From a virus, in the IMG/VR virus record IMGVR_UViG_3300042894_004766, positions 1 through 64,000 of that record: a stretch of DNA of 64,000 nucleotides. One strand, written 5' to 3'. Below, piece by piece: positions 1-39,977 of the stretch; position 1 is the stretch's first letter; each line of letters opens with the position of its first letter. The notes beneath the pieces are model-generated. The model made no database searches and was not told the DNA's origin. It saw only the letters and a program-made list of their open reading frames with translations. The position numbers were made by a program, and so were the translations under genes.

Positions 1-4
1 TTTG

Positions 5-93
5 TAGTCTGTACGGGATTCGAACCCGCGTTACCTCCTTCGAAGGGAGACGTCCTGACCCACCGAGGTGAGTATCCACTAGACGAACAGACC
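5..93 (-). tRNA. tRNA-Glu-scaffold tRNA-like RNA; 7-nt loop CUUCGAA (UCG in the anticodon position); hairpin inserted in D-loop
   Basis: Reverse complement GGTCTGT TC GTCT AGTGG ATACTCACCTCGGTGGGTC AGGAC G TCTCC CTTCGAA GGAGG TAAC GCGGG TTCGAAT CCCGT ACAGACT A; no encoded CCA. Confidence 0.8.
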
Positions 94-182
94 GAAGTGT
101 CGTGTTTTGATTACACTAAAGATGAATTCTTGTATAAGAAGTACCAACTTGTCAACATTACAGAAATGACATTTACACTTAG

Positions 183-255
183 TAGCGGGAGAAGGACTCG
201 AACCTCCGACCTTATGGTTATGAGCCACACGAGCTACCTACTGCTCTATCCCGCG
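183..255 (-). tRNA. Initiator-type tRNA-Met (CAT)
   Basis: CGCGGGA...TGTGG CTCATAA CCATA...TCCCGCT A; 1-72 mismatch and A11-U24 typical of tRNA-fMet. Confidence 0.9.
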
Positions 256-260
256 ATATG

Positions 261-376
261 TAGTCTGTACGGGATTCGAACCCGCGTTCCTCTCTCGTGA
301 CTAAGAGAATGTCCTGTTTACCTTACTTTAATGCCGAAGCTTTTTGTTCAGTAAACATCCACTAGACGAACAGACC
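261..376 (-). tRNA. tRNA-Glu-scaffold tRNA-like RNA; long D-loop hairpin; 8-nt anticodon-position loop
   Basis: Same acceptor, T arm and D-stem as 5-93; D-loop insert TGTTTAC...GC TTCG GC...GTAAACA; arm TTCTCT TAGTCACG AGAGAG. Confidence 0.75.
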
Positions 377-411
377 GAAGAGTGTCGGAATTAAAACGCG
401 CAGCACTCTTA

Positions 412-455
412 TTTTGTTTGACAAAGATACGGTGACTTTTTTAATCTACCAAATC
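412..455 (-). promoter_or_regulatory. Bacteroidota primary-sigma promoter, 44-bp repeat copy 1
   Basis: GATTTGGTAGATTAAAAAAGTCACCGTATCTTTGTCAAACAAAA: TTTG (-33) and TATCTTTG (-7 TAnnTTTG). Confidence 0.85.
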
Positions 456-475
456 TTTTTTCATTTATTTTTTTG

Positions 476-573
476 TAGTCTGTACGGGATTCGAACCCGC
501 GTGTTCTCCTTAATTGCCGAACCGGCGAGAAGACATCCTATCTACCGAGGTAGCTCCACTAGATGAACAGACC
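476..573 (-). tRNA. tRNA-Glu-scaffold tRNA-like RNA; extra hairpin in anticodon arm; no canonical anticodon loop
   Basis: Same acceptor and T arm; D-loop insert CTACC TC GGTAG; arm TCTTCT C GCCG GTT CGGC AATTA AGGAGA. Confidence 0.75.
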
Positions 574-633
574 GAAGAGTTGTGCTTTCTTACACCACGA
601 AGCCGAGTATTTCACACGACGCCTACTCTTATT

Positions 634-677
634 TTTTGTTTGACAAAGATACGGTGACTTTTTTAATCTACCAAATC
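634..677 (-). promoter_or_regulatory. Bacteroidota sigma promoter, repeat copy 2
   Basis: Identical to 412-455. Confidence 0.85.
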
Positions 678-697
678 TTTTTTCAATTTTTTTTTTG

Positions 698-775
698 TGA
701 CCGAAGTTGGGTTCGAGCCAACAACTAGCGTTACTTCTATTTCAAGAATACTACTTTACATTAAGTTACCCGGCC
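698..775 (-). tRNA. Degenerate tRNA-like element, isotype unclear
   Basis: Acceptor GGCCGGG/TTCGGTC (three G-U pairs), D arm ACTT/AAGT, T arm GTTGG CTCGAAC CCAAC, irregular anticodon arm TTCT TGAAAT AGAA. Confidence 0.55.
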
Positions 776-779
776 TTAG

Positions 780-890
780 TAGTCTGTAAGGGATTCGAAC
801 CCATGTTTACAATCTCTCCATATACCAGGGCATAAAAGCGTGAGATTGTCGTCCTATTACCGAAGTAATATACCGCTAGACGAACAGACC
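780..890 (-). tRNA. tRNA-Glu-scaffold tRNA-like RNA; UUCG hairpin in D-loop; 8-bp arm closing a 25-nt loop
   Basis: GGTCTGT...TATTAC TTCG GTAATA GGAC G ACAATCTC[25 nt]GAGATTGT AAAC ATGGG TTCGAAT CCCTT ACAGACT A. Confidence 0.75.
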
Positions 891-897
891 ATTTTAT

Positions 898-941
898 TTT
901 TGTTTGACAAAGATACGGTGACTTTTTTAATCTACCAAATC
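898..941 (-). promoter_or_regulatory. Bacteroidota sigma promoter, repeat copy 3 (related copy at ~1106-1138)
   Basis: Identical to 412-455. Confidence 0.85.
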
Positions 942-1088
942 TTTTTCAGATTTTTTTAATTCTTTTTCTTGAAGTCTCAAAAGTTTACAAACTTCTGAAT
1001 AATGGTAGTAAACACCATCTTGACCTTGAACACCTGTTGCATTTTCTAAAATGAAATCTCCAATAGGTCTTTTTATTTCTTCTGTCAT
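927..1088 (-). CDS. Small hypothetical protein
   Basis: ORF; start moved to MTEEIK because a TATCTTTG promoter overlaps the upstream ATG. Confidence 0.55.
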   Translation of the reverse strand: MTEEIKRPIGDFILENATGVQGQDGVYYHYSEVCKLLRLQEKELKKSEKDLVD

Positions 1089-1153
1089 TATTTCTTTATT
1101 AGAGTACAAAGATACAAAAGTTTTTTAATCTACCAAATATTTTTCAGAATTTT

Positions 1154-1360
1154 TTATTTTAAATAATGTTTTTTAAAATTTGTTTGTTCTTTATTTAGAA
1201 TTATAATATATCTTGTGCCTCTAGAGGTCTTATATACCTGATACATTTCAGAGTTTATATAATAGATTTCATTTGTATAAGTAAGTCTTTGAATTCTTTT
1301 TTCTATAGAACAAGAAGTGGTTAATATTAATAATGCGAGGAGTGTGATTAAATGTTTCAT
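1154..1360 (-). CDS. Small lipoprotein
   Basis: Signal peptide with lipobox LTTS-C. Confidence 0.65.
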   Translation of the reverse strand: MKHLITLLALLILTTSCSIEKRIQRLTYTNEIYYINSEMYQVYKTSRGTRYIIILNKEQTNFKKHYLK

Positions 1361-1372
1361 CTAAATTACCAA

Positions 1373-1849
1373 TTATTTTTTTAAAATGTTTACAAAGTAA
1401 TCTTTATCTTTTTCAGTTAATGTATATAAGTAAGAACTTTGGTCATTTCCATTAATATATCTTATAGACTCTAATGTTTTTGTTTCTAAGAAAGCTACAT
1501 CAATTGCAGTTAATGGGAAAGTTACTTCAATTAAATCACATACTAGTTCATTATTCGCCAAAATTTTCATTTTCTTACCACCAACAAATGTGAATACTAA
1601 AATATCATTATTACTACATTTACCTATATTTAGTTTTAATGTTTTTAGATAACTCTTAACTAAAACCCCATCAAACTTTTTAAATGTTGGTAAAATAGCA
1701 AACCATTTATCTCTATCTTCATTTGAACATATCAACATTGGTGCGGATACTTCTTCTTCTCTTGGATTAGTATCAATTTTTGTGTTTTCAATTTGTGCAT
1801 TACTTATAAATGATAGAAGTAGTATTGCAATTGTTAGTAATTTTTTCAT
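1373..1849 (-). CDS. Secreted hypothetical protein
   Basis: Signal peptide ending SNA-Q (Bacteroidota-type). Confidence 0.7.
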   Translation of the reverse strand: MKKLLTIAILLLSFISNAQIENTKIDTNPREEEVSAPMLICSNEDRDKWFAILPTFKKFDGVLVKSYLKTLKLNIGKCSNNDILVFTFVGGKKMKILANNELVCDLIEVTFPLTAIDVAFLETKTLESIRYINGNDQSSYLYTLTEKDKDYFVNILKK

Positions 1850-1886
1850 CTTATTTGTTTTTTTATTATTTGTTTATATTATTTGA

Positions 1887-2951
1887 TTATCCTGAAATGT
1901 ATCTAAATAGTAGAAATAGTCCACAAGATAATGCAATTGTAACTGGTAGCGTAAGAATCCACGCAGATAGTATTGTTTTTATTGTTTTTGTTTTTAAATT
2001 ATTTACTCCTTTTGAAGCAACCATTGATCCTGCAATACCAGAACTTAGTATGTGTGTTGTTGATACTGGTAGTTTAAGTGCAGTTGATAACCCAATCGTA
2101 ATTGCAGCAACTAATTCAGAAGAAGCTCCTTGGGCATAGGTTAAATGTTGTTTACCTATTTTTTCTCCAATAGTAACTACAATTCTTTTCCATCCAATCA
2201 TTGTTCCTAATCCTAATGAAGTAGCAATCATCCACATAACCCACATTGGTGGATTCTCAACACTTTCTAATGTAAAGTAAGCTGGTAAGAAAGCTATAAG
2301 AATAATCATAGCTAAACCAACTCCTTTTTGGCCGTCATTTCTTCCGTGAAAGAATGATACTAATGTACAAGTTGATATAAGTGTTGCTCTAATCCAAAAA
2401 GGAGGTGGTGTATCGCCTTTAGGTTCTTCAAATACATCTTTTCTTTTAATAACTTTGTTTAGAAACCACATTAAAAGTATAACCATAGTGAATCCTAATA
2501 AAGGTGAGAAAAATAGAGCTTTTCCTATATCAATAATTTTATCCCAATTTGTGTAATCTACTCCTGTTATAATAGAATAACCAACACTTACTCCTATAAT
2601 TGAACCAATTAAGGTATGAGAAGAAGAAGCTGGAATTCCTTTGTACCAAGTTGCTAAATTCCAAAAAATTGCAGTTATAAGAACTGACATAACCATTCCC
2701 ATCGAGTGATAGATGTTGGTATCTGTAAGTAATTCTTTAGGAATAAGTGTTACAATACTTAAAGCAACACCTACTCCACCCGTGATAAGACCAAGAAAAT
2801 TCATAATTCCTGACCAAACAACTGCTTGTTTAGGCTTTAAAGACTTTGTATAGATTACAGTGGCAACTGCATTTGCAGTATCATGAAATCCATTAACGAA
2901 TTCAAAGATACAAACCGCCAGTAAAGCTAAAATTAGCAAAGTTGTTAACAT
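1887..2951 (-). CDS. pitA: Inorganic phosphate transporter (PiT/PHO4 family)
   Basis: NGFHDTANAVAT, PASSSH, HGRNDGQK and PVSTTH motifs. Confidence 0.93.
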   Translation of the reverse strand: MLTTLLILALLAVCIFEFVNGFHDTANAVATVIYTKSLKPKQAVVWSGIMNFLGLITGGVGVALSIVTLIPKELLTDTNIYHSMGMVMSVLITAIFWNLATWYKGIPASSSHTLIGSIIGVSVGYSIITGVDYTNWDKIIDIGKALFFSPLLGFTMVILLMWFLNKVIKRKDVFEEPKGDTPPPFWIRATLISTCTLVSFFHGRNDGQKGVGLAMIILIAFLPAYFTLESVENPPMWVMWMIATSLGLGTMIGWKRIVVTIGEKIGKQHLTYAQGASSELVAAITIGLSTALKLPVSTTHILSSGIAGSMVASKGVNNLKTKTIKTILSAWILTLPVTIALSCGLFLLFRYISG

Positions 2952-3001
2952 AAAGTTATTTTTTAATGTATAGTTTTTAAAATTAAAAAGTTTAAAAAGT
3001 A

Positions 3002-3188
3002 AGTGAGCTTAGCCGCGATTTTGTTTTATCCTATCATTTATCTTTGCATCAACCCGTTCTCATAGGGAAACCGACACCCTCAAACTGTTTGACTTGCTAC
3101 TTCCTTAGTACAATCGACGTTAGTCTCCTAAGTTAGGTTTTGTAGTCGCGAACTTCCTCTGTTTCCAGCGATAGGTTCTCTGCTTACT
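3002..3188 (-). ncRNA. rnpB: Minimal RNase P RNA (catalytic domain; highly reduced specificity domain)
   Basis: P1 AGTAAGC/GCTCACT, P2 CCTATC/GATAGG, P3 CTG GAAA CAG, P4 GAGGAAGTTCGCGA / AACAAAATCGCGGCT with bulged U, P5 CTAC/GTAG, P6 AAACC/GGTTT, AGCAAG and AGATAAATGAT conserved segments; TATATTTG promoter at ~3207-3214. Confidence 0.85.
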
Positions 3189-3254
3189 AAGCTATTTTTA
3201 ATTTTTACAAATATACTAATTTTTTATTTAATATATAAAAGAAAAAATATAATT

Positions 3255-3677
3255 ATGAAAAAAATATTTAATACTTTTATAACAAACAAGTGGCATTTAC
3301 ACTCTTTAACATTACCTGCTTGTATATTGTGGGTATGGTTAATGGTTACTTATGACTTTTTAGATTTAAGAGATACTGGAAAATTCTTTCATGTATTTCT
3401 TTGTACATTTTCATCTGCTGCAGTAGCATTTGTAGTTGAATGGATACAAGGTGTATTCTTTGGTGCGAATAAAACACCTGAGCAGGTAAAAGCTAGTAAC
3501 TTAGATATGTTGGTTTCTACAGTTGCAGGTTTTGTTGGTGCTTTATCGGCAGTTATTTTCCCACCTTCTACCACACTTGCTTGGTTATCTTTAGTTATAA
3601 TTACTTTATTGGAGTTATATAGAAGAAAGTTTATTTTAAAGAAGAAAATTTTAAATGTTAAAGACATTAAGTTCTAA
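3255..3677 (+). CDS. Membrane protein (about 4 TM helices)
   Basis: Hydrophobic segments; AATATATA motif upstream. Confidence 0.7.
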   Translation: MKKIFNTFITNKWHLHSLTLPACILWVWLMVTYDFLDLRDTGKFFHVFLCTFSSAAVAFVVEWIQGVFFGANKTPEQVKASNLDMLVSTVAGFVGALSAVIFPPSTTLAWLSLVIITLLELYRRKFILKKKILNVKDIKF

Positions 3678-3707
3678 AAAAAACCCACTCATTTGAGTGG
3701 GTTTTTT
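3677..3707. terminator. Bidirectional intrinsic terminator (ACCACTC/GAGTGGT family; relatives at ~7047-7078, 23406-23430, 33128-33152, 43644-43674)
   Basis: A-tract, CCCACTC ATTT GAGTGGG, T-tract between convergent genes. Confidence 0.85.
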
Positions 3708-3708
3708 A

Positions 3709-3918
3709 TTATCCTCCATATGCTTCGATTATATAACCATGTCTAACTCTAAAGTTTATTCTATTAGGATTAGCATCCATATCTAACATTTTTGCTTGAC
3801 CATTTTCTTCTGTTATTCTTACTGTAAATCCACCATCTTGTGCATACTGTGTTGCTTCTTCGATAGTTTTACCCTCATACTCTCCTTGAGTAATTAAGCC
3901 AAAATTTCTTAATGCCAT
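3709..3918 (-). CDS. Putative I78/I13-type protease inhibitor-like protein
   Basis: MLDMDANPNRINFRVRHGYIIEAYGG resembles the TMDYRPDRLN...G pattern. Confidence 0.5.
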   Translation of the reverse strand: MALRNFGLITQGEYEGKTIEEATQYAQDGGFTVRITEENGQAKMLDMDANPNRINFRVRHGYIIEAYGG

Positions 3919-3981
3919 AATTTTATTTTTTATTTTATACAAAAAAAGATAAACAAAGTTTATCTTTTATAATTTGTGTTT

Positions 3982-4821
3982 CTATCTTTTAAATTCATCA
4001 AATTTTAAAAGTTTTGACTCAACTACTACTTCTTTCGCAGTTGTACCACCTCTTCTTTCCATTGCTTTCCATTTCTTATCTAAGAAAGCTAACTTAGCTT
4101 TATCGATTTTGCAGTTTCTATCTGAAATGTTTCCTTCGTTGAAAAGTGCAATCATTTCATCAATACTTAATGTAGGGTGTTTTTTATCAAACAATGGATC
4201 TGGATGTGACCAACCAAATTTAAGTAACCAGTTTAACATAGCAGCCTTACTGAAGTCTTTGTAGTCTTCTGTTGTACCGTTACCTTTTCTCTTAGATAAT
4301 TTAGCATTACCTTCAAAAAGTAAACCAGCATGTGTAATAACTGGAAATGGTTTGTCTCCTTCAACTTCACAAATCTTATCCCAGATTAAGTGTTGTTTTA
4401 CCTCATTTGCAATGTGGTCAACACCTCTGATGATGTTAGTTACATCATAATCATAATCATCTAAGATTGAACAAAAGTTATAAGTAGGAAATCCGTTATT
4501 TCTAAGGATAACCATTGAGTACTCTCCCATATCTAACTCGTAACCATTCTCAGTTTTAGTACCGATTTTTTCAGCTACTTCTTTATAACGGTCTAATCTT
4601 TCGGACTGTCTGAATGTGATGTCATGATCTAATCCAAACTCTGCCATTTGATCATAGATATAGTCAATCCATTCTGGTTTATTTCTTTCTTGATCGGTAT
4701 CATCAATTCTTAAAATGAATGTACCGTTATTAGCTCTTGCTTGAAGCCAAGCAAGTAATGCTGTACGTAAGGTTCCTAAATGAAAGAATCCAGTTGGAGA
4801 GGGTGCTACTCTTGTTACCAT
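3982..4821 (-). CDS. Truncated glutamyl-tRNA synthetase-like protein (catalytic and SC-fold domains only)
   Basis: RVAPSPTG-HLGT, RIDDTD, RQSER, IIRGVDH, KLSKR, FGWS; 279 aa, no anticodon-binding domains. Confidence 0.9.
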   Translation of the reverse strand: MVTRVAPSPTGFFHLGTLRTALLAWLQARANNGTFILRIDDTDQERNKPEWIDYIYDQMAEFGLDHDITFRQSERLDRYKEVAEKIGTKTENGYELDMGEYSMVILRNNGFPTYNFCSILDDYDYDVTNIIRGVDHIANEVKQHLIWDKICEVEGDKPFPVITHAGLLFEGNAKLSKRKGNGTTEDYKDFSKAAMLNWLLKFGWSHPDPLFDKKHPTLSIDEMIALFNEGNISDRNCKIDKAKLAFLDKKWKAMERRGGTTAKEVVVESKLLKFDEFKR

Positions 4822-4982
4822 ATTATATTTTTTCTTTTGTTTATATATTTAATTTCTTTTACAAAAATATGTCATTTAATTCATATAACCAAACTTACTA
4901 TCCAAGTTTTTGTTATTTTTAATTCTTATAAATTACGGTTTTGATTATAGAATAATAATATATACTTAAAAATATTTTTTTT

Positions 4983-7043
4983 ATGAAGAAATTAAAACTT
5001 TATGAGTTATTTACTGGAGAAGAAGGTGAACAACAAAAGACTAAAAAGAAAACTCCGTTCTTAGACGCATATGGTGTTGATATGACTAAACTTGCAGAAG
5101 ATGATAAACTTGACCCTGTAATAGGTAGACAAAAAGAAATCGACCAAGTTATATGGATTTTATCTAGAAAGAATAAAAACAATCCAGTTATTATTGGTGA
5201 ACCAGGTGTTGGTAAAACTGCAATTATCGAAGGTATTGCAAGACTTATGGTAACAGAAGATTGTCCAGAAGCATTAGAAGGCAAAAGAATTGTATCTGTT
5301 GACATGGGTACTATTATGGCTGGACAAGGTGGTTTAGAAGCTAAAGTAAAAGCTTTAATGGATGAACTTAATGATAATCCAGAAATTATTCTTTTTATTG
5401 ATGAGATTCACTTAATGGTAAATAAAGGTGTGCCGATTGATATGGCAAACCAAATCAAACCAGCTCTAGCAAGAGGTCAAATGCGTTTAATTGGAGCAAC
5501 TACGAATAATGAATTTAGAAATTCTATTGAAAAAGATGGTGCTTTAGAAAGAAGATTTCAAAAAGTAAATGTTGAAGAGCCATCTATTGAAGATACAATT
5601 GAAATTTTAATGAAAATTAAAAATAAATATGAAGACTTTCATAAAGTTTCATATAATGATGATGCTATTGAAGCTTGTGTTACCCTATCAGGTAGATTTA
5701 TTTCAGACAGATACTTTCCAGATAAAGCAATTGATTTAATGGATGAAGTTGGTGCAAAAATGAGAATCTCTGCTAAGAAAAATACTCCTGCAGAACTTAT
5801 AGAAATAGAAAAAGAATTATCTGAGATAAGATTACAAAAAACAGAATTTTTAAAAGCACAAAAATATCAGGAAGCTGGTGATTTAAGACCAAGAGAAAAT
5901 GAATTAGTTATTAAAGCTATTGAAATTAAGAAAGCCGCAAAAGATATGCCAAGAATTACAATTACTAAAGAAGATGTTGAAAAAATACTTTCTTTAAAAA
6001 CTGGTATTCCTACACAAGTAACTGGTGATGAAGGTAAAAGACTTTTAGGATTAGAAGGTGAATTAAAAATGCAAATTATCGGACAAGATGAAGCTGTTAC
6101 AAAAATTGCAAAATCTATTAGAAGAAACAGAGCAGGTTTAAAAGATCCTAATAGACCAGCCGGTGTATTTCTTTTCTTAGGTTCTACTGGTACTGGTAAA
6201 ACACATACTGTAAAAACATTGGCAAAGAATGTATTTGGTACAGAAGACGCAATGATTAGAGTTGATATGTCAGAATATGCTGAGAAACATAATGTTGCTA
6301 GAATGATTGGTTCTCCTCCGGGATATGTAGGATATGGTGAAGGTGGTCAATTGACTGAAAAAGTAAGAAGAAAACCTTATTGTATTATATTATTTGATGA
6401 GTTAGAGAAAGCACACCCTAGTGTAATGGATATCATGTTGCAGATTTTTGATGATGGTCACTTAACAGATGGTGAAGGAAGAAAAGTAGATTTTAGAAAT
6501 ACTATTATTGTTATGACTTCTAACATTGGTGCAAGTGCGGTTAATCAAATGGTAACACCTGTTGGATTTGGTGCAGATAAGCCAATGGTTAAAGAAGAGA
6601 ATGCTAAAGCTATAATTAAAGCTGAGTTAAGTAAAAGATTAAAACCTGAGTTTATCAATAGAATTGATGAAATTATTATATTCTCTTCTTTATCAAAAGA
6701 AAATATTTATAAAATCATTGATATTGAAATTAAAAAGGTTGAGAGTAAACTAAAAGCGATGAATTTATCATTAGAAATTACAACTGCTTTTAAAGATTTA
6801 TTGATTGATAAAGGATATGATGAAAAGATGGGTGCTCGTCCATTAAAAAGAGCAATTCAGCATTACTTAGAAGATCCACTTTCAGATGAGATATTAGGTG
6901 GTGAATTAGAAGGAAATGTTGTAGTTGATTATGATCCATCATCTAATAAAATTTTACTTAATGGGAAACCATTTGATGTAAATGAAAGTAAAAGTTTCAA
7001 ATATCTTAAACCATTAAATGAGTTTTTAAAAAAGAATAGATAA
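4983..7043 (+). CDS. clpC: ClpC-like AAA+ ATPase lacking the N-terminal repeat domain
   Basis: GEPGVGKT, LFIDEIH, ALERRFQ, UVR-like QKYQEAGDLR, GSTGTGKT, GSPPGYVG, GARPLKR. Confidence 0.92.
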   Translation: MKKLKLYELFTGEEGEQQKTKKKTPFLDAYGVDMTKLAEDDKLDPVIGRQKEIDQVIWILSRKNKNNPVIIGEPGVGKTAIIEGIARLMVTEDCPEALEGKRIVSVDMGTIMAGQGGLEAKVKALMDELNDNPEIILFIDEIHLMVNKGVPIDMANQIKPALARGQMRLIGATTNNEFRNSIEKDGALERRFQKVNVEEPSIEDTIEILMKIKNKYEDFHKVSYNDDAIEACVTLSGRFISDRYFPDKAIDLMDEVGAKMRISAKKNTPAELIEIEKELSEIRLQKTEFLKAQKYQEAGDLRPRENELVIKAIEIKKAAKDMPRITITKEDVEKILSLKTGIPTQVTGDEGKRLLGLEGELKMQIIGQDEAVTKIAKSIRRNRAGLKDPNRPAGVFLFLGSTGTGKTHTVKTLAKNVFGTEDAMIRVDMSEYAEKHNVARMIGSPPGYVGYGEGGQLTEKVRRKPYCIILFDELEKAHPSVMDIMLQIFDDGHLTDGEGRKVDFRNTIIVMTSNIGASAVNQMVTPVGFGADKPMVKEENAKAIIKAELSKRLKPEFINRIDEIIIFSSLSKENIYKIIDIEIKKVESKLKAMNLSLEITTAFKDLLIDKGYDEKMGARPLKRAIQHYLEDPLSDEILGGELEGNVVVDYDPSSNKILLNGKPFDVNESKSFKYLKPLNEFLKKNR

Positions 7044-7077
7044 ATAAAAAAACCACTCAAATGAGTGGTTTTCTTTT

Positions 7078-7494
7078 TTATGATTTGTAGAAATCTCCTT
7101 TTTCTTCTACGTATTTCAATCTTGCTTCTTCAGCTTGAGATCTTAGTTTAACATATTCTTTTCTAAGTAATTGAATTTGTTTTTCTTTTTGACTTGTTTC
7201 TAATACAACTTTGAAATCGATAACATTTTTAAGTTTTAAGTACCAGAAGAAGTTATTGATTGACTTTTGTCCGGTTTTTTTACCAACAAGAAATAATCGT
7301 CTTGCTAACTTTTTCTTTCCAGTTTGTGTTAAGTGATCAATCTTAAAGTTTATCCACTCTAAGTGTTCGTTTACTTCACCGTCAACTTTTATTACATATT
7401 TTTTATCAATTGCAACTTGTGTTGCTTTTACCATTAGATTTTTCAAGTTTACATCTAATTCATTTACTCCTGTGTTTGTTTGTTTTGTGTCCAT
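7078..7494 (-). CDS. Hypothetical protein with basic C-terminal coiled coil
   Basis: 138-aa ORF followed by a terminator. Confidence 0.7.
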   Translation of the reverse strand: MDTKQTNTGVNELDVNLKNLMVKATQVAIDKKYVIKVDGEVNEHLEWINFKIDHLTQTGKKKLARRLFLVGKKTGQKSINNFFWYLKLKNVIDFKVVLETSQKEKQIQLLRKEYVKLRSQAEEARLKYVEEKGDFYKS

Positions 7495-7551
7495 TTTTTT
7501 AATATTTTTTTTAGTTATTTTTTAATAATTTTAATCTTCTAAGTTAAAATA

Positions 7552-7584
7552 TTAAGTTGGACCTCTGATTACAATCTATCTCAT
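7552..7584 (-). CDS. Putative amber-containing leader peptide M-R-(TAG)-I-V-I-R-G-P-T
   Basis: AAATAAATAAACAAC ATG AGA TAG ATT GTA ATC AGA GGT CCA ACT TAA; same ATG-NNN-TAG-ATT context as 9508-9519. Confidence 0.55.
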
Positions 7585-7604
7585 GTTGTTTATTTATTTT
7601 TTGT

Positions 7605-8195
7605 TTATATTTCGTTTAATTTTTTCACTTTAAATATTTTTTTGATGTTATCAAGTTTTGCTTTAATATCATCAAGTAATTGTCTTTGAACTCTAGTAAA
7701 AGTTCTACCTTCTTCCATTGCGTCAACTATTGCACAAGTTTCTCTGTAATAGTTTGTTCTGAATCTTTCAGAAGCAGTAAATGCGTCTGCAATGTTATTA
7801 AATCTATCTGATAGTTTAATAGTAAACGCTTTGTCAGACATTTTCAACATTTTATTGATTAGGTAGTTTGTTTTACTACCTCCCCATTTATGTTTAATTT
7901 CATCTGTGTTAGATGTTAACTCTAACATAATATCTGCAACCTCTTTACCAAAAAGTTCTTTCACATCAGCATAAGCATCCCAGATGTTATCATAACAATC
8001 TTCTGCAACATCGTGTACTAAAGCAGCGATTAAGGTTGCTTCATCAGTAGTGTACAATTTTAATGTACCATTTACTTTTTGTACGTGTGCGTCAAAGTAA
8101 GGTTGTCCAGTAAACTTTCTTACTTGATCTTTATGAGCTCTTTGGGCAAATTCCCAAGCTAATTTTTCTTTCGGTGTAATCGGTGCGTTCGCCAT
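7605..8195 (-). CDS. RelA/SpoT-type HD hydrolase (small alarmone hydrolase/Mesh1-like)
   Basis: AHKDQVRK...PY..H, AALVHDVAED, IKLSDRFNN. Confidence 0.85.
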   Translation of the reverse strand: MANAPITPKEKLAWEFAQRAHKDQVRKFTGQPYFDAHVQKVNGTLKLYTTDEATLIAALVHDVAEDCYDNIWDAYADVKELFGKEVADIMLELTSNTDEIKHKWGGSKTNYLINKMLKMSDKAFTIKLSDRFNNIADAFTASERFRTNYYRETCAIVDAMEEGRTFTRVQRQLLDDIKAKLDNIKKIFKVKKLNEI

Positions 8196-8236
8196 AAATC
8201 TTTTCTTTTTATATATTATATTGCAAATATACGATT

Positions 8237-8599
8237 TTATTTTATATATTCCTCAAATTCTTTATAGACTCTTTCCATAAATCTTTTTTCTCTATCAGTT
8301 ATATCTGGTCCTAAATCAAATATAAATTTACTTTTTATGATTTCCCAGTTTTCTTCTTTTGTTTTATCATCATCATAATTATCATAGATAATATCAAATG
8401 AATCTGTACAATAAATATCTACTTTATCTCCTTTTATAGTAGATACATAGTTGTCATTTTCATCAATATATGAGTAGTGACCATCGTAATATCCAGGTAT
8501 TCTTGCGGCACCTATTGGTACACCACCATACATTCTTACATGTGATTCTCCTGTTGGGTCCGCATCTTGCAATATTTTTATAAATTCTTTTGTTGTCAT
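8237..8599 (-). CDS. Hypothetical protein
   Basis: 120-aa ORF in the operon. Confidence 0.7.
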   Translation of the reverse strand: MTTKEFIKILQDADPTGESHVRMYGGVPIGAARIPGYYDGHYSYIDENDNYVSTIKGDKVDIYCTDSFDIIYDNYDDDKTKEENWEIIKSKFIFDLGPDITDREKRFMERVYKEFEEYIK

Positions 8600-8601
8600 A
8601 A

Positions 8602-9525
8602 TTATTGTTTATTTTTTAATAAGTTTAAAACTTGTTTACCTCTTTTATCTAATTGTTTGTATTTTATTTTAAATGAAGTACTTTCAATACCACCAAATAT
8701 CGCTGCATTAGAATGTAATTCACAAAGTGATGTTACTAATAGTGTAAAAACGGTTTCGATTGAGTTTTTTGTAACAAAGTCTTCTACTTCATCTGATTTA
8801 ATAGTATGAAATACCATATCTTTTAAGATTAAATCTGCAACTACTTTGTTATCAGAAATCTTAGAGAATGTATCAAATGATACTTGTGCGTGGTTTGGAA
8901 AGTGTCTTTTACCTTCTTCATCAATTATCATACAATATGCCTTCCCACAATCGTGCATTACTTGATATTCCTTAATATCTTCTAATGAATGTAAGTTGTT
9001 AAGTATAAACTCTTTATTATCTGTAAACCAAGTAGGTAACTTCCATTCAAATACTGGATTACTACTAGTTAAATCGTTAAAATACTTATTGACAGATATG
9101 CCGTGATCTAGTACACTTTGTGTATCAGTTTGAGGTGTATCAATCATATCAGAGATAACTTTCTCGTATGTTAGTTTTGATTTTTTACCTAAAAGTGGAA
9201 GATATGAAACTTTCTTTCTGACATCTTTATCTGCGTATAAACAAATAGATGTAAGTTCATCGTTTAAATCTGGTTCGTAAAATTTTGTGACTGAGGTAAG
9301 TTTGGATAACTTTAAGTATAAGTCATTTAATTCTTTTTCATTGTTTACTTGTAAACAGATGATAGAATTAGATGTAGTTTTCCATTCTTTAAATTGTTGT
9401 GGAAACTCGTATGCGAAGTCTGCAATTGAGTGTGTTGATTGTTGGCTCTGATAGCCTGGAGTTAAATCACTTCTAGTGATAACTACTAATTTTGCTTGGT
9501 CTTTGTTAATCTAAGTCATTGTCAT
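8602..9525 (-). CDS. Pth2-like peptidyl-tRNA hydrolase fused to an HD domain, with an in-frame TAG at 9511-9513
   Basis: Frame is open from 9510 to 8602: KLVVITRSDLTPGYQSQQSTHS...FYEPDL...LPLLG (Pth2-like), then HDCGK...HFPNHA (HD). The upstream ATGs (9525, 9519) are separated from it only by TAG. Confidence 0.8.
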
Positions 9526-10394: not shown

Positions 10395-11648
10395 TTAGTT
10401 TAATTTAGCTCTGATTCCGGGCATATAAATCTCAATCAATTGTATCAATTCTTCTTTACACTCTGGAGTCAATGATTTATTTTTATTTTGATTCAACAAA
10501 ATCATAAATGAACTTACAACTTTATTAAATTTAAAGGCATCTGTAAAGTCAAATATAGTTTTCTTAAATGATTCTATATCAATAGTTTCTTCACCTGTTT
10601 TATCCAACCAAGTTTTCATTCTATTTATAAATCTTCTAATTCCAATTATATTTTCATCAGACCAAGAACCACCATCAAAGTAGTGACCAATAAACATCAA
10701 GTAAAATCTGATTTCATCTGGATCATATCCATCCAAACTAACTACATTTCCCTTTGATTTAGACATCTTTTCACCACCATTCAATATCATTCCTTGGTGT
10801 ACCAACTTATTAATTGGTTCTTCAAAGTCAATAAATCCAATATCATACAAAAACATTGTGATAAATCTAATATAAATCAAGTGCATACAAGCATGTTCTG
10901 AACCACCAACATACAAATCAACTGGTTTTGGTTTAATACCTTTCATCAAACAATAGATAATAGTATAAATAGAACTATCTACGAATGTGTCCATTGTATC
11001 TGTCTCACCTTCAATAGGAATAGGGCAACCCCAACTTCTTTGTCTTGATACACACCAGTCGTGTTGATTTTCCAACCAATTTCTTTGTGACTTTATTGTA
11101 GATTCTGGAAAGTCAATCTTATCCAAACCTGCAATCAATCTATCTTTATAATCTGTGATTTTGAAATACCATTGATTCAATGTTTTCTTTTCTACTTCTG
11201 TAGAACATCTTTCACATTTACCATCTTTTACTTGTTCTCTTGCCAATACAGTTTCACAACTGTTACAGAAGTCAACTTCACCATCTTTCTTATAAGCCAA
11301 ACCTTTATCATACAATTGTTTAAACAACCATTGTGTGTACTCAATATAGTTAGGATCCGAGGTAATCAACATTTCCTCGTATTGAGTATTCATGTTATCC
11401 ATCTGTATTCTAAAATTTTCTATATTTTCGTAGGTAACTTCTCTTGGATCTCTACCTACTTTTTTTGCATAGTTTTCTGCTGGCAAACCATGACTATCAT
11501 ATCCAAAGGGTTGAAAAACTTGTTCACCTTTATATCTCAAGTATCTACAGTAACTATCCATAATCGCATAGTTATACCAGTGTCCACAGTGCAAACCACT
11601 CCCAGAAGGATATGGGAAAAATGTTGCAATATATTTATAATCTTTCAT
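10395..11648 (-). CDS. Minimal leucyl-tRNA synthetase-like protein (no CP1 editing or C-terminal domain)
   Basis: FPYPSGSGLHCGH, GYDSHGLPAEN, QWYFKIT, DWCVSRQRSWGCPIP, TMDTFVDSS, KMSKSKGN. Confidence 0.9.
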   Translation of the reverse strand: MKDYKYIATFFPYPSGSGLHCGHWYNYAIMDSYCRYLRYKGEQVFQPFGYDSHGLPAENYAKKVGRDPREVTYENIENFRIQMDNMNTQYEEMLITSDPNYIEYTQWLFKQLYDKGLAYKKDGEVDFCNSCETVLAREQVKDGKCERCSTEVEKKTLNQWYFKITDYKDRLIAGLDKIDFPESTIKSQRNWLENQHDWCVSRQRSWGCPIPIEGETDTMDTFVDSSIYTIIYCLMKGIKPKPVDLYVGGSEHACMHLIYIRFITMFLYDIGFIDFEEPINKLVHQGMILNGGEKMSKSKGNVVSLDGYDPDEIRFYLMFIGHYFDGGSWSDENIIGIRRFINRMKTWLDKTGEETIDIESFKKTIFDFTDAFKFNKVVSSFMILLNQNKNKSLTPECKEELIQLIEIYMPGIRAKLN

Positions 11649-11845
11649 TTCTTTGTTTTTTTCTTGTAAAGTGACTTGTGTCAATTTTTAATTTTTTAAT
11701 TATTCTATAAATTTTACTTTCAATTAGTTTTGTGTGTTCTTGTTGTATATTTGTACAAATATCTTTACTATCCACTATGTTCCCTACTTATATTTTTAAT
11801 TTAAGCTTAGTTGCAAATATAATAATTAAATTTAATATATAAACT

Positions 11846-15458: not shown

Positions 15459-16301
15459 TTAGTCTTGTAATTCAAGTTGTTCTTGATTTTGTTTTTGAAG
15501 TAACTCCATAGCTCTTGCTAATCTTGTTAAACCAATTCCTGCACCAAATCTTGGAAAGAAATCAAATTTTAGGAAATCTTCCAATTCTTTTTCTACTCTT
15601 TCTTTTCCGAATAATTCAAATAATTTTTCAGAATATCCACCATTTTCTATTGTATAAAACATTTTTCTCATAGAGTCAATATCGCAACTTCTTTCTGCAG
15701 CACCTATTGTTTCTTGTCCATATAATATTATATCAACTTTATTAAATAGATCATCTTTTTGATTTTGCATGTTCCAAAATGGATTAGTTCTTAGTGGAAA
15801 GTTTTGAAGAGAAACACAATGACTTACTTCATTCCACATTTTAGTTTCATGTTCATTTTCTAAAATTGATACGTCTCCATATTCTTTACAAGTTTTATTA
15901 TAGTCCATTTCAACAGGTGATCCAAATCCTAAATACTCAAGAAGTTCTTTTTCTAATAGAATTAAATCTTTATATTTACCTTTTGATTCAAACTCAAACA
16001 TTGGAAAGATTAGTTCATGTCTTCCAGGAATTGGATTTTTTTCTGCTCTGTAACTTGTAGATACACAGAAAACTCCATCCCAAGTAGGATTTTTTAATAA
16101 TTCATACTCAAGCCACATTTGTCCAGTTTGTGGTAGTGGCCATATCTCACCATTGTATTCAAAGGTTGATACGGAGTGTGGGTTTTCACACGCTGCTAAG
16201 ATTGATAATCTTGATTGTGTTGGTACTTCTACGAAGTTTTTTTCCAAAAAAAATTCTCTTAGTTTTTGAACTAGAGAATTGTACATTAAAGTGTTTGTCA
16301 T
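15459..16301 (-). CDS. Class IIb aaRS catalytic-domain-only protein (AsnRS/AspRS-like; possibly asparagine synthetase-type paralog)
   Basis: Motif 1 FFLEKNFVEVPT, motif 2 YRAE...RH..FPMFEFE, motif 3 GAGIGLTRL; no OB-fold domain. Confidence 0.85.
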   Translation of the reverse strand: MTNTLMYNSLVQKLREFFLEKNFVEVPTQSRLSILAACENPHSVSTFEYNGEIWPLPQTGQMWLEYELLKNPTWDGVFCVSTSYRAEKNPIPGRHELIFPMFEFESKGKYKDLILLEKELLEYLGFGSPVEMDYNKTCKEYGDVSILENEHETKMWNEVSHCVSLQNFPLRTNPFWNMQNQKDDLFNKVDIILYGQETIGAAERSCDIDSMRKMFYTIENGGYSEKLFELFGKERVEKELEDFLKFDFFPRFGAGIGLTRLARAMELLQKQNQEQLELQD

Positions 16302-39306: not shown

Positions 39307-39977
39307 CTCTTCTTTAAAGGTATTGCAGGATTTACATCAAAATTATCATTAAGATAAGTTTTTAACTCATTTTCTATATAATGATCTGGTACTAATTTAC
39401 CATCATCTTCCTTTTCCATTTTATCACTAATAAATGATGTGAAACTATTTACTACTTCAGGTTTAAGTGCTTCAATCAATCTATCCGATACTACAAATGC
39501 TCTTGAAAATCTATCTTTTAGTGGAACTTCACCTTCTGGTAACATCATATAAGTATCAATAGTTTTCTTTAAGAAATCGGTATATTTAGATTGTGGTTCT
39601 AAATATTCAAATAATGTATCAAATACTCTGTGTACTAAACGAGAGGAACCAAATATTGTACCTACTACTGCAAGTACTGGAAAGAAAGGTGCTAATGATA
39701 AAGGAATTGCAATTGGTAAGATATTAAATATATTTTTCTTTAGTGTAGTTTTCTTTTTTGCGTCAACCGCGTCTTTAAATATTGCTCTAAGAATACCAAA
39801 TGTAAAATTCTCACCTTTAGAATGTAAGTAAGTAGCTAAGTGTCCTTGTTTAGATAAAGAGATTTGTTTTTTCAATTCTTCTTTATCAGTCACACCCATT
39901 TTAATAAGTTGTTCTTTTATATTTTTATCATATCTTTCTACGATTAGAAAATCACTATATTTCTTTACTTTTTTCAT
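39303..39977 (-). CDS. Hypothetical protein with hydrophobic hairpin and N-terminal KKYSDFL motif
   Basis: ORF. Confidence 0.7.
   Translation of the reverse strand: MKKVKKYSDFLIVERYDKNIKEQLIKMGVTDKEELKKQISLSKQGHLATYLHSKGENFTFGILRAIFKDAVDAKKKTTLKKNIFNILPIAIPLSLAPFFPVLAVVGTIFGSSRLVHRVFDTLFEYLEPQSKYTDFLKKTIDTYMMLPEGEVPLKDRFSRAFVVSDRLIEALKPEVVNSFTSFISDKMEKEDDGKLVPDHYIENELKTYLNDNFDVNPAIPLKKS

Follow-up and report, generated by a model that had tools for sequence, protein, structure and literature searches.

A truncated glutamyl-tRNA synthetase of huge phages and its relation to tRNA-Glu genes and GOLLD-adjoining tRNA-like RNAs

The stretch of DNA analysed here (hereafter the window) corresponds to positions 1 to 64,000 of a viral record of 99.8 kb whose estimated completeness is 17%. 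A GC content of ~29%, promoters of the Bacteroidota type and a nearest public genome that belongs to an uncultured phage (LR745206.1, 634,780 bp) point to a Lak-like megaphage, i.e. a giant gut-type phage, as its source, and the standard genetic code already yields a dense coding map across it. On the minus strand, at 3982-4821, an ORF of the predicted length was confirmed that encodes a 279-residue protein related to glutamyl-tRNA synthetase (GluRS) and referred to below as mini-GluRS, which consists of a Rossmann catalytic core, a stem-contact fold and a disordered tail of 22 residues. It is surrounded by a Clp-type ATPase, PHO4 and small ORFs. The ATPase (4983-7043, plus strand) is a ClpB-like double-AAA protein without the usual N-domain, and a protein with a SpoT/RelA-type HD hydrolase domain is encoded 3 kb from mini-GluRS (7605-8195, minus strand). 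A small ORF just downstream of mini-GluRS (3709-3917, minus strand), which begins MALRNFGLITQGEYEG, resembles by eye a peptidase-inhibitor I78-type domain, with no Pfam match at an E-value of 0.01. In a permissive-threshold Rfam scan, no RNase P family was matched in positions 1-9000, including 3002-3188.

The intact GluRS core that had been predicted is indeed present in the translation, in which the HIGH motif takes the form HLGT (residues 14-17) and the KMSKS motif the form KLSKR (residues 174-178), together with the glutamate-binding residues and a stem-contact region consisting of FGWS (202-205) and IDKAKLAFL (239-247). The sequences RIDDTD (38-43), PTY (112-114) and RGVDH (132-136) are also recognizable. 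The Pfam catalytic domain tRNA-synt_1c (PF00749) matches mini-GluRS with an E-value of 2e-45 in two stretches, 2-86 and ~102-251, while the scores against the NCBIfam models TIGR00464 (gltX; 205.3 bits for a curated cut-off of 289.95) and TIGR03838 (YadB/GluQRS; 122.5 bits for a cut-off of 276.7) both fall short because parts of the protein are missing. These are the parts that the original prediction had named, the anticodon-binding domain and most of the connective-peptide (CP)/zinc insertion. When mini-GluRS is compared with a solved GluRS (7k86), the step from residue 89 to 102 corresponds to chain positions 100 to 177, which means that ~65-75 residues of the CP/zinc insertion are absent. 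The spacing between RIDDTD and PTY is thus 68 residues, compared with 96-105 in other truncated relatives and 130-146 in full-length enzymes, and there is no cysteine between the two motifs in the translation. At the other end, the match to the solved GluRS stops near residue 320-340, ahead of the anticodon-binding domain (PF19269), which mini-GluRS lacks since it ends ~25 residues past the stem-contact fold.

Two ways in which the missing domain might have escaped notice were considered and rejected. Amber suppression is known in Lak-type phages and the stop codon of mini-GluRS is TAG (3984-3982), but an in-frame TAA follows five codons later: in the stretch after the TAG (3967-3981, minus strand), KHKL is encoded before this second stop, so that read-through would append only five residues (QKHKL) and reveal no hidden domain. 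A split GluRS with a free-standing anticodon domain was ruled out because PF19269 is found only inside the full-length GltX of LR745206.1 and of a second related phage (G001, 483 kb), and nowhere in the genome of a third (G002). The gene is preceded by promoter-like elements (4862-4893, minus strand) consisting of TTTG at -33 (4893-4890) and TATTTTTG at -7 (4869-4862), 20 nt apart, which are of the Bacteroidota type (consensus TTTG/TAnnTTTG). Just past its stop lies an AT-rich 10-bp hairpin followed by a run of T (3941-3967, minus strand), which looks terminator-like. Its glutamate codons (14 GAA and 6 GAG, for an overall GAG usage of 22%) show no preference for GAG.

In place of an anticodon domain, the disordered tail of mini-GluRS (window positions 3985-4050) carries the peptide KLLKFDEF. 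This conforms to a motif (two hydrophobic residues, any two residues, [F/Y], [D/E/N/S/T], any residue, [F/Y]) that is found in 65 of 94 family members for 14 expected from shuffled tails. A similar M-K-x-L-K-x-F/Y-E-x-F sequence occurs at the N-termini of several unrelated proteins of the window, including the adjacent Clp-type ATPase; the ORFs with an N-terminal K-x-L-K-x-F/Y-D/E-x-F peptide start at 4983 and 26852 on the plus strand and at 39977, 44256 and 53474 on the minus strand. The C-terminal F-D/E-x-F-type peptide is probably a docking or targeting signal.

At the very beginning of the window, on the same strand as mini-GluRS, lies a cluster of four tRNA-Glu-like RNAs (S1 to S4, hereafter scaffolds) that have the 5′ half, T arm and acceptor stem of tRNA-Glu in common. 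S1 (5-93; 94.7 bits with the purpose-built covariance model R1) has a hairpin inserted in its D-loop and a 5-bp anticodon stem with a 7-nt loop, CUUCGAA. In S2 (261-376), the D-loop insert measures 46 nt, and a stem of 6-7 bp with a loop of 6-8 nt takes the place of the anticodon arm. A D-loop hairpin is also found in S3 (476-573), together with an internal hairpin in the anticodon arm, and in S4 (780-890), where the D-loop hairpin is capped by UUCG and an 8-bp stem with an inner hairpin replaces the anticodon arm. The cluster includes a canonical tRNA-Met(CAU) at 183-255 (minus strand), which recurs in the homologous clusters adjoining GOLLD in relatives. A weak tRNA-like RNA (RF00005, 32 bits) is also present between S3 and S4, at 698-775 (minus strand); its acceptor stem and T arm are good, but its D arm is poor and 9 nt are inserted where the anticodon would be expected.

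With model R1, 38 scaffold-type RNAs were found in the loci examined, and their covariation is extensive: pairing holds in 94.4% of cells, and both sides vary in 21 of 25 pairs, among them all four that were modelled in the D-loop hairpin. U13-G22 is present in 36 of 36 copies, G1-U72 in 35 of 36 and U11-A24 in 31 of 36; these three pairs and a 4-nt variable loop are common to the scaffolds and to the phage tRNA-Glu genes. G1-U72, which recurs throughout the tRNA-Glu and scaffolds of Lak-like phages, may either mark the partners of the CP-less enzymes or simply reflect the tRNA-Glu type of the host. In E. coli tRNA-Glu, U11-A24, U13-G22:A46 and the missing residue 47 are identity elements independent of the anticodon (PMC9976931). 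It had been claimed that the RNAs 3 kb from mini-GluRS keep their D-stem determinants and have lost the anticodon. The first half of this statement holds, on account of U11-A24 and U13-G22, while the second applies to most copies but not to S1, with its 5-bp stem and CUUCGAA loop. Some copies elsewhere have a UUC loop (L012_b) or a UUUUCA/G loop, and 'anticodon-less' thus fits most scaffolds, not all. The idea that S1, with its nominal anticodon UCG, might be a glutamate-inserting tRNA that reassigns CGA is not supported, as CGA codons were aligned with arginine at seven of 10 orthologous positions, with lysine at two and with glutamate at one, in what is a small sample.

The scaffolds have a regular companion. 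GOLLD RNA (RF02032, 181-324 bits), whose nanocage structure is known, adjoins them in 9 of 12 loci and in LR745206.1, often with its 3′ end within 6-150 nt of a scaffold and with the tRNA-Met in the same cluster (L013, 15709-17631; L016, 17452-19642; L008, 1501-2963; L113, 218-878; L078, 5823-6392). In the window, the contig stops 4 nt past S1, and in a 95%-identical relative (L016) a fifth scaffold and, beyond it, GOLLD come next to the S1 homologue, so that the window's own GOLLD copy is probably located just beyond the contig end. G002 contains neither GOLLD nor scaffolds. D-loop-expanded tRNA-Glu-like RNAs are, in short, regular companions of GOLLD in huge phages.

The mini-GluRS gene is real and functional, as judged from its conservation, selection and predicted fold. 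Its dN/dS values of 0.06-0.16 against nine orthologues reveal strong purifying selection, and more than 120 clusters (at 90% identity) contain proteins of 250-285 residues that are 65-94% identical to it. Among 185,579 species genomes no close cellular relative was found, the best match being an ordinary GluRS with 36% identity. The AlphaFold2 model has a mean pLDDT of 93.4, with low confidence only in the last ~22 residues, and Foldseek ranked bacterial GluRS first (TMq 0.74-0.81), with GluQRS lower (0.58-0.63). Residues R4, A6, S8, H14, G16, R38, D41-D43, Y114, R132, D135, H136, K174, S176, K177 and R178 show little or no variation among truncated and full-length GluRS, the serine of KLSKR being invariant. 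In a first tree, with two GluQRS (from Salmonella and Acinetobacter) as outgroup, mini-GluRS grouped into a 48-row clade (SH-aLRT 98) whose members nearly all have 250-340 residues. In an enlarged tree to which IMG/VR sequences, cellular GluRS and the full-length GltX of LR745206.1 were added, this clade grew to 78 rows (SH-aLRT 97), 76 of which have at most 345 residues and 35 of which are of viral origin, on contigs of up to 607 kb; the full-length phage GltX fell outside it. In the alignment, all clade members end at a common point just past the stem-contact fold. Most have retained a residual CP hairpin of ~30-35 residues, which has also been lost in the window's subfamily and in P0123, P0124 and P0138. 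That mini-GluRS belongs to a virus-associated clade of truncated GluRS of 250-345 residues is therefore well supported.

An idea of what this clade acts on came from its surroundings. In 39 viral loci from IMG/VR, 64 tRNA genes lie at most 2.5 kb from clade genes, and 24 of them encode canonical tRNA-Glu(UUC/CUC), for a baseline of ~5% that was assumed from some twenty specificities, with only three tRNA-Asp genes to set beside these 24. Arrays of 2-4 tRNA-Glu genes that share the strand of the clade gene and end 13-500 nt upstream of it are typical (L173, L175, L176, L192 and L196), and such arrays also lie alongside members that have no CP hairpin (L153 and L159). This linkage makes a partnership between enzyme and tRNA-Glu plausible and is the strongest evidence, suggestive only, that the clade works on tRNA-Glu.

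The same data bear on the possibility, raised in the original prediction, of an enzyme akin to GluQRS/YadB, the glutamyl transferase that acts on queuosine 34 of tRNA-Asp. The acceptor site in a tRNA or tRNA-like RNA would then be internal, for instance a modified nucleoside, and not the 3′ end. The logic is the same, that of a GluRS core without anticodon-binding domain, there is a match to the YadB model and tRNA-Asp genes are present near some loci. However, the 122 bits of this match are far from the cut-off of 277 and lower than the 205 bits obtained with gltX, the fold resembles GluQRS less than it resembles GluRS, and the zinc-binding CP region, which is present in GluQRS, is missing. 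The phylogeny against GltX and GluQ that had been proposed as a check places mini-GluRS with the truncated GluRS and GluQRS as the outgroup of both trees (support 99-100), while the neighbours that are enriched are genes for tRNA-Glu and not tRNA-Asp. Mini-GluRS is thus not a GluQRS, and a modifying activity of this kind seems very unlikely.

The original proposal was that mini-GluRS and the scaffolds form an orthogonal synthetase-RNA pair. In a dedicated pair of this kind, the enzyme would glutamylate the D-loop-expanded, anticodon-less RNAs to produce a non-translational, possibly GOLLD-linked Glu-RNA. Enzyme and scaffolds do share a strand and are 3-10 kb apart in the window as well as in G007, G008 and G011, its closest relatives; the D-helix, variable-loop and acceptor features of tRNA-Glu have been kept without an anticodon even in distant phages; and the scaffold-bearing genomes of LR745206.1 and G001 encode a full-length GltX beside the mini enzyme, which leaves room for a specialized role. 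The linkage is nevertheless limited to these closest relatives. In LR745206.1 some 400 kb separate the enzyme gene (at 23 kb) from the scaffolds (at 420 kb), and co-occurrence across phage genomes, which the original prediction had itself named as a check, breaks down in both directions. LR745206.1 and G001 have both partners, but mini-GluRS is found without scaffolds in G002 (464-465 kb, estimated to be 98% complete), whose seven ordinary tRNAs include none that is Glu-like, and in G023 (369 kb, 100%), which has only canonical tRNA-Glu. Conversely, scaffolds are found without mini-GluRS in G019 (436 kb, 95%) and G018 (263 kb, 84%), both of which lack any GluRS-like gene, and in G020 (289 kb, 100%), which has only a full-length GluRS. 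What the scaffolds track is GOLLD, which adjoins them in most loci. This double dissociation in near-complete genomes speaks against a dedicated pair, which the data do not support and which we consider improbable.

Nor do the data support the suggestion that the loss of the anticodon-binding domain mirrors that of the anticodon. The truncated architecture is older and far commoner than the scaffolds and sits beside arrays of canonical tRNA-Glu(UUC/CUC). Moreover, other synthetases of the window are likewise stripped down: a LeuRS-like protein of 429 residues, about half the normal length (10395-11684, minus strand; TIGR00396, 367 bits), and a class II AsnRS/AspRS-like protein of 280 residues without the N-terminal anticodon-binding part (15459-16301, minus strand), so that domain loss is a general feature of this phage's synthetases. 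The scaffolds can thus be regarded as possible, but not specific, substrates of mini-GluRS. It is likewise improbable that mini-GluRS glutamylates the GOLLD-linked RNAs in such a way that the resulting Glu-RNA would serve as cargo or tether of the GOLLD nanocage, or as a glutamyl donor, with the F-D-x-F peptide recruiting the enzyme.

The full-length GltX of LR745206.1 (~395.8-397.3 kb; L291 412-1890) and of G001 (~299 kb) has 492 residues, scores 390 bits with TIGR00464 and possesses the anticodon domain. Mini-GluRS is therefore an extra paralogue with room for a specialized task, and in these phages it would be dispensable for plain charging of tRNA-Glu, which hints at a different substrate. 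One might accordingly consider a non-canonical role, in which mini-GluRS would glutamylate a protein or small molecule, as do the truncated synthetase paralogues EpmA/PoxA and MshC, or would be a non-catalytic binder of tRNA-Glu or a decoy, for example against HipA-type kinases, which phosphorylate the serine of KLSKR in host GluRS. Besides the coexistence with GltX, this would be in accord with the loss of both tRNA-holding domains, the invariance of the KLSKR serine and the presence of the enzyme in G002, which has no tRNA-Glu gene. The SpoT-like HD hydrolase encoded 3 kb away also suits such a role, since this hydrolase, the ClpB-like ATPase and mini-GluRS would fit a counter-stringent-response module. 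On the other hand, the stem-contact fold, whose role in tRNA binding is known, has been retained and conserved, the linkage to tRNA-Glu genes is strong throughout the clade and none of the adjoining genes (the Clp-type ATPase, PHO4 and the small ORFs) encodes a conserved candidate acceptor protein. A non-canonical role thus appears unlikely, although it deserves more credit than the two alternatives discussed above.

The reading that we favour, with a probability of roughly 55%, is that mini-GluRS is a catalytically competent, anticodon-independent enzyme that transfers glutamate to tRNA-Glu-type acceptors and represents a phage-specific clade of truncated paralogues. Beyond residue conservation and gene linkage, every step of the scenario that follows is inferred. 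ATP and glutamate would be bound through the HIGH motif, KLSKR and the residues of the glutamate pocket, whose conservation is observed; GluRS normally requires tRNA for glutamate activation. The enzyme would then dock on tRNA-Glu-type RNAs by its stem-contact fold, reading the D-helix and the acceptor but not the anticodon, and would esterify their 3′ end. Its ordinary clients would most likely be tRNA-Glu, encoded by the phage or by the host. Without reading U34, it could charge both the UUC and CUC isoacceptors as well as hypomodified phage transcripts, and the supply of Glu-tRNA would be secured or insulated during infection. The scaffolds might be chargeable too because the same D-helix, variable-loop and acceptor features have been kept, although they would not be the defining partner. 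In the Lak-like subfamily, the residual CP hairpin was lost and the C-terminal hydrophobic-x-x-F-D/E-x-F peptide gained, probably for docking or targeting. Several points argue against this reading. Where a full-length GltX is encoded as well (LR745206.1 and G001), the mini enzyme is superfluous for plain tRNA-Glu charging. To our knowledge, every characterized GluRS, GlnRS and GluQRS retains the CP/acceptor-binding domain, and an enzyme without it may fail to position the CCA end; and G002 has the enzyme but no tRNA-Glu-like gene. This last genome (L044, 123127-123198) is tRNA-poor, with no tRNA of the Glu type, and mini-GluRS is still present.

If active, a natural class I synthetase with neither anticodon-binding domain nor CP insertion would come near the minimal urzyme cores that have until now been laboratory products only, and would reveal the small amount of protein needed to charge a tRNA specifically. 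Since the clade occurs widely in huge phages and is linked to their tRNA-Glu arrays, it is relevant to the question of how translation is taken over or insulated by large phages; anticodon-independent charging of the phage's own, possibly unmodified, tRNAs would offer a route for such a takeover. Independently of the enzyme, the companionship between scaffolds and GOLLD provides a concrete and testable handle on GOLLD biology.

How does mini-GluRS compare with known systems? Its best match in sequence and fold is GltX (TIGR00464), with which it shares the class I Rossmann core, the HIGH- and KMSKS-type motifs, the glutamate-binding residues and the stem-contact fold, but from which it differs by the absence of the anticodon-binding domain and of ~65-75 CP (zinc) residues, by the short C-terminal peptide motif found instead, by a score under the family cut-off (205 vs 290 bits) and by its coexistence with a true GltX in related phages. 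Like GluQRS/YadB (TIGR03838), it is a paralogue of the GluRS catalytic domain, of similar size and without anticodon-binding domain; unlike GluQRS, it belongs to a separate lineage, has no dksA context and has tRNA-Glu rather than tRNA-Asp genes as neighbours. With the other truncated GluRS-like proteins of huge phages (250-345 residues) it has in common the end point, the conserved active site and membership of one clade (SH-aLRT 97-98), while its subfamily differs from most of them in having lost the CP hairpin (68 vs 96-105 residues) and added the C-terminal motif. Engineered fragments also invite comparison: a C-terminally truncated E. coli GluRS without anticodon domain charges tRNA-Glu specifically but weakly, and class I urzyme cores without CP1 and anticodon domain retain activation and acylation activity. 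In contrast to these fragments, mini-GluRS is the product of a natural, conserved and selected gene family. As for the scaffolds, the closest parallel is mascRNA, which binds GlnRS without being charged (PMC9976931): they are likewise tRNA-shaped and without a working anticodon loop, but unlike mascRNA they are of the Glu type, carry a D-loop hairpin, occur as several paralogues and adjoin GOLLD.
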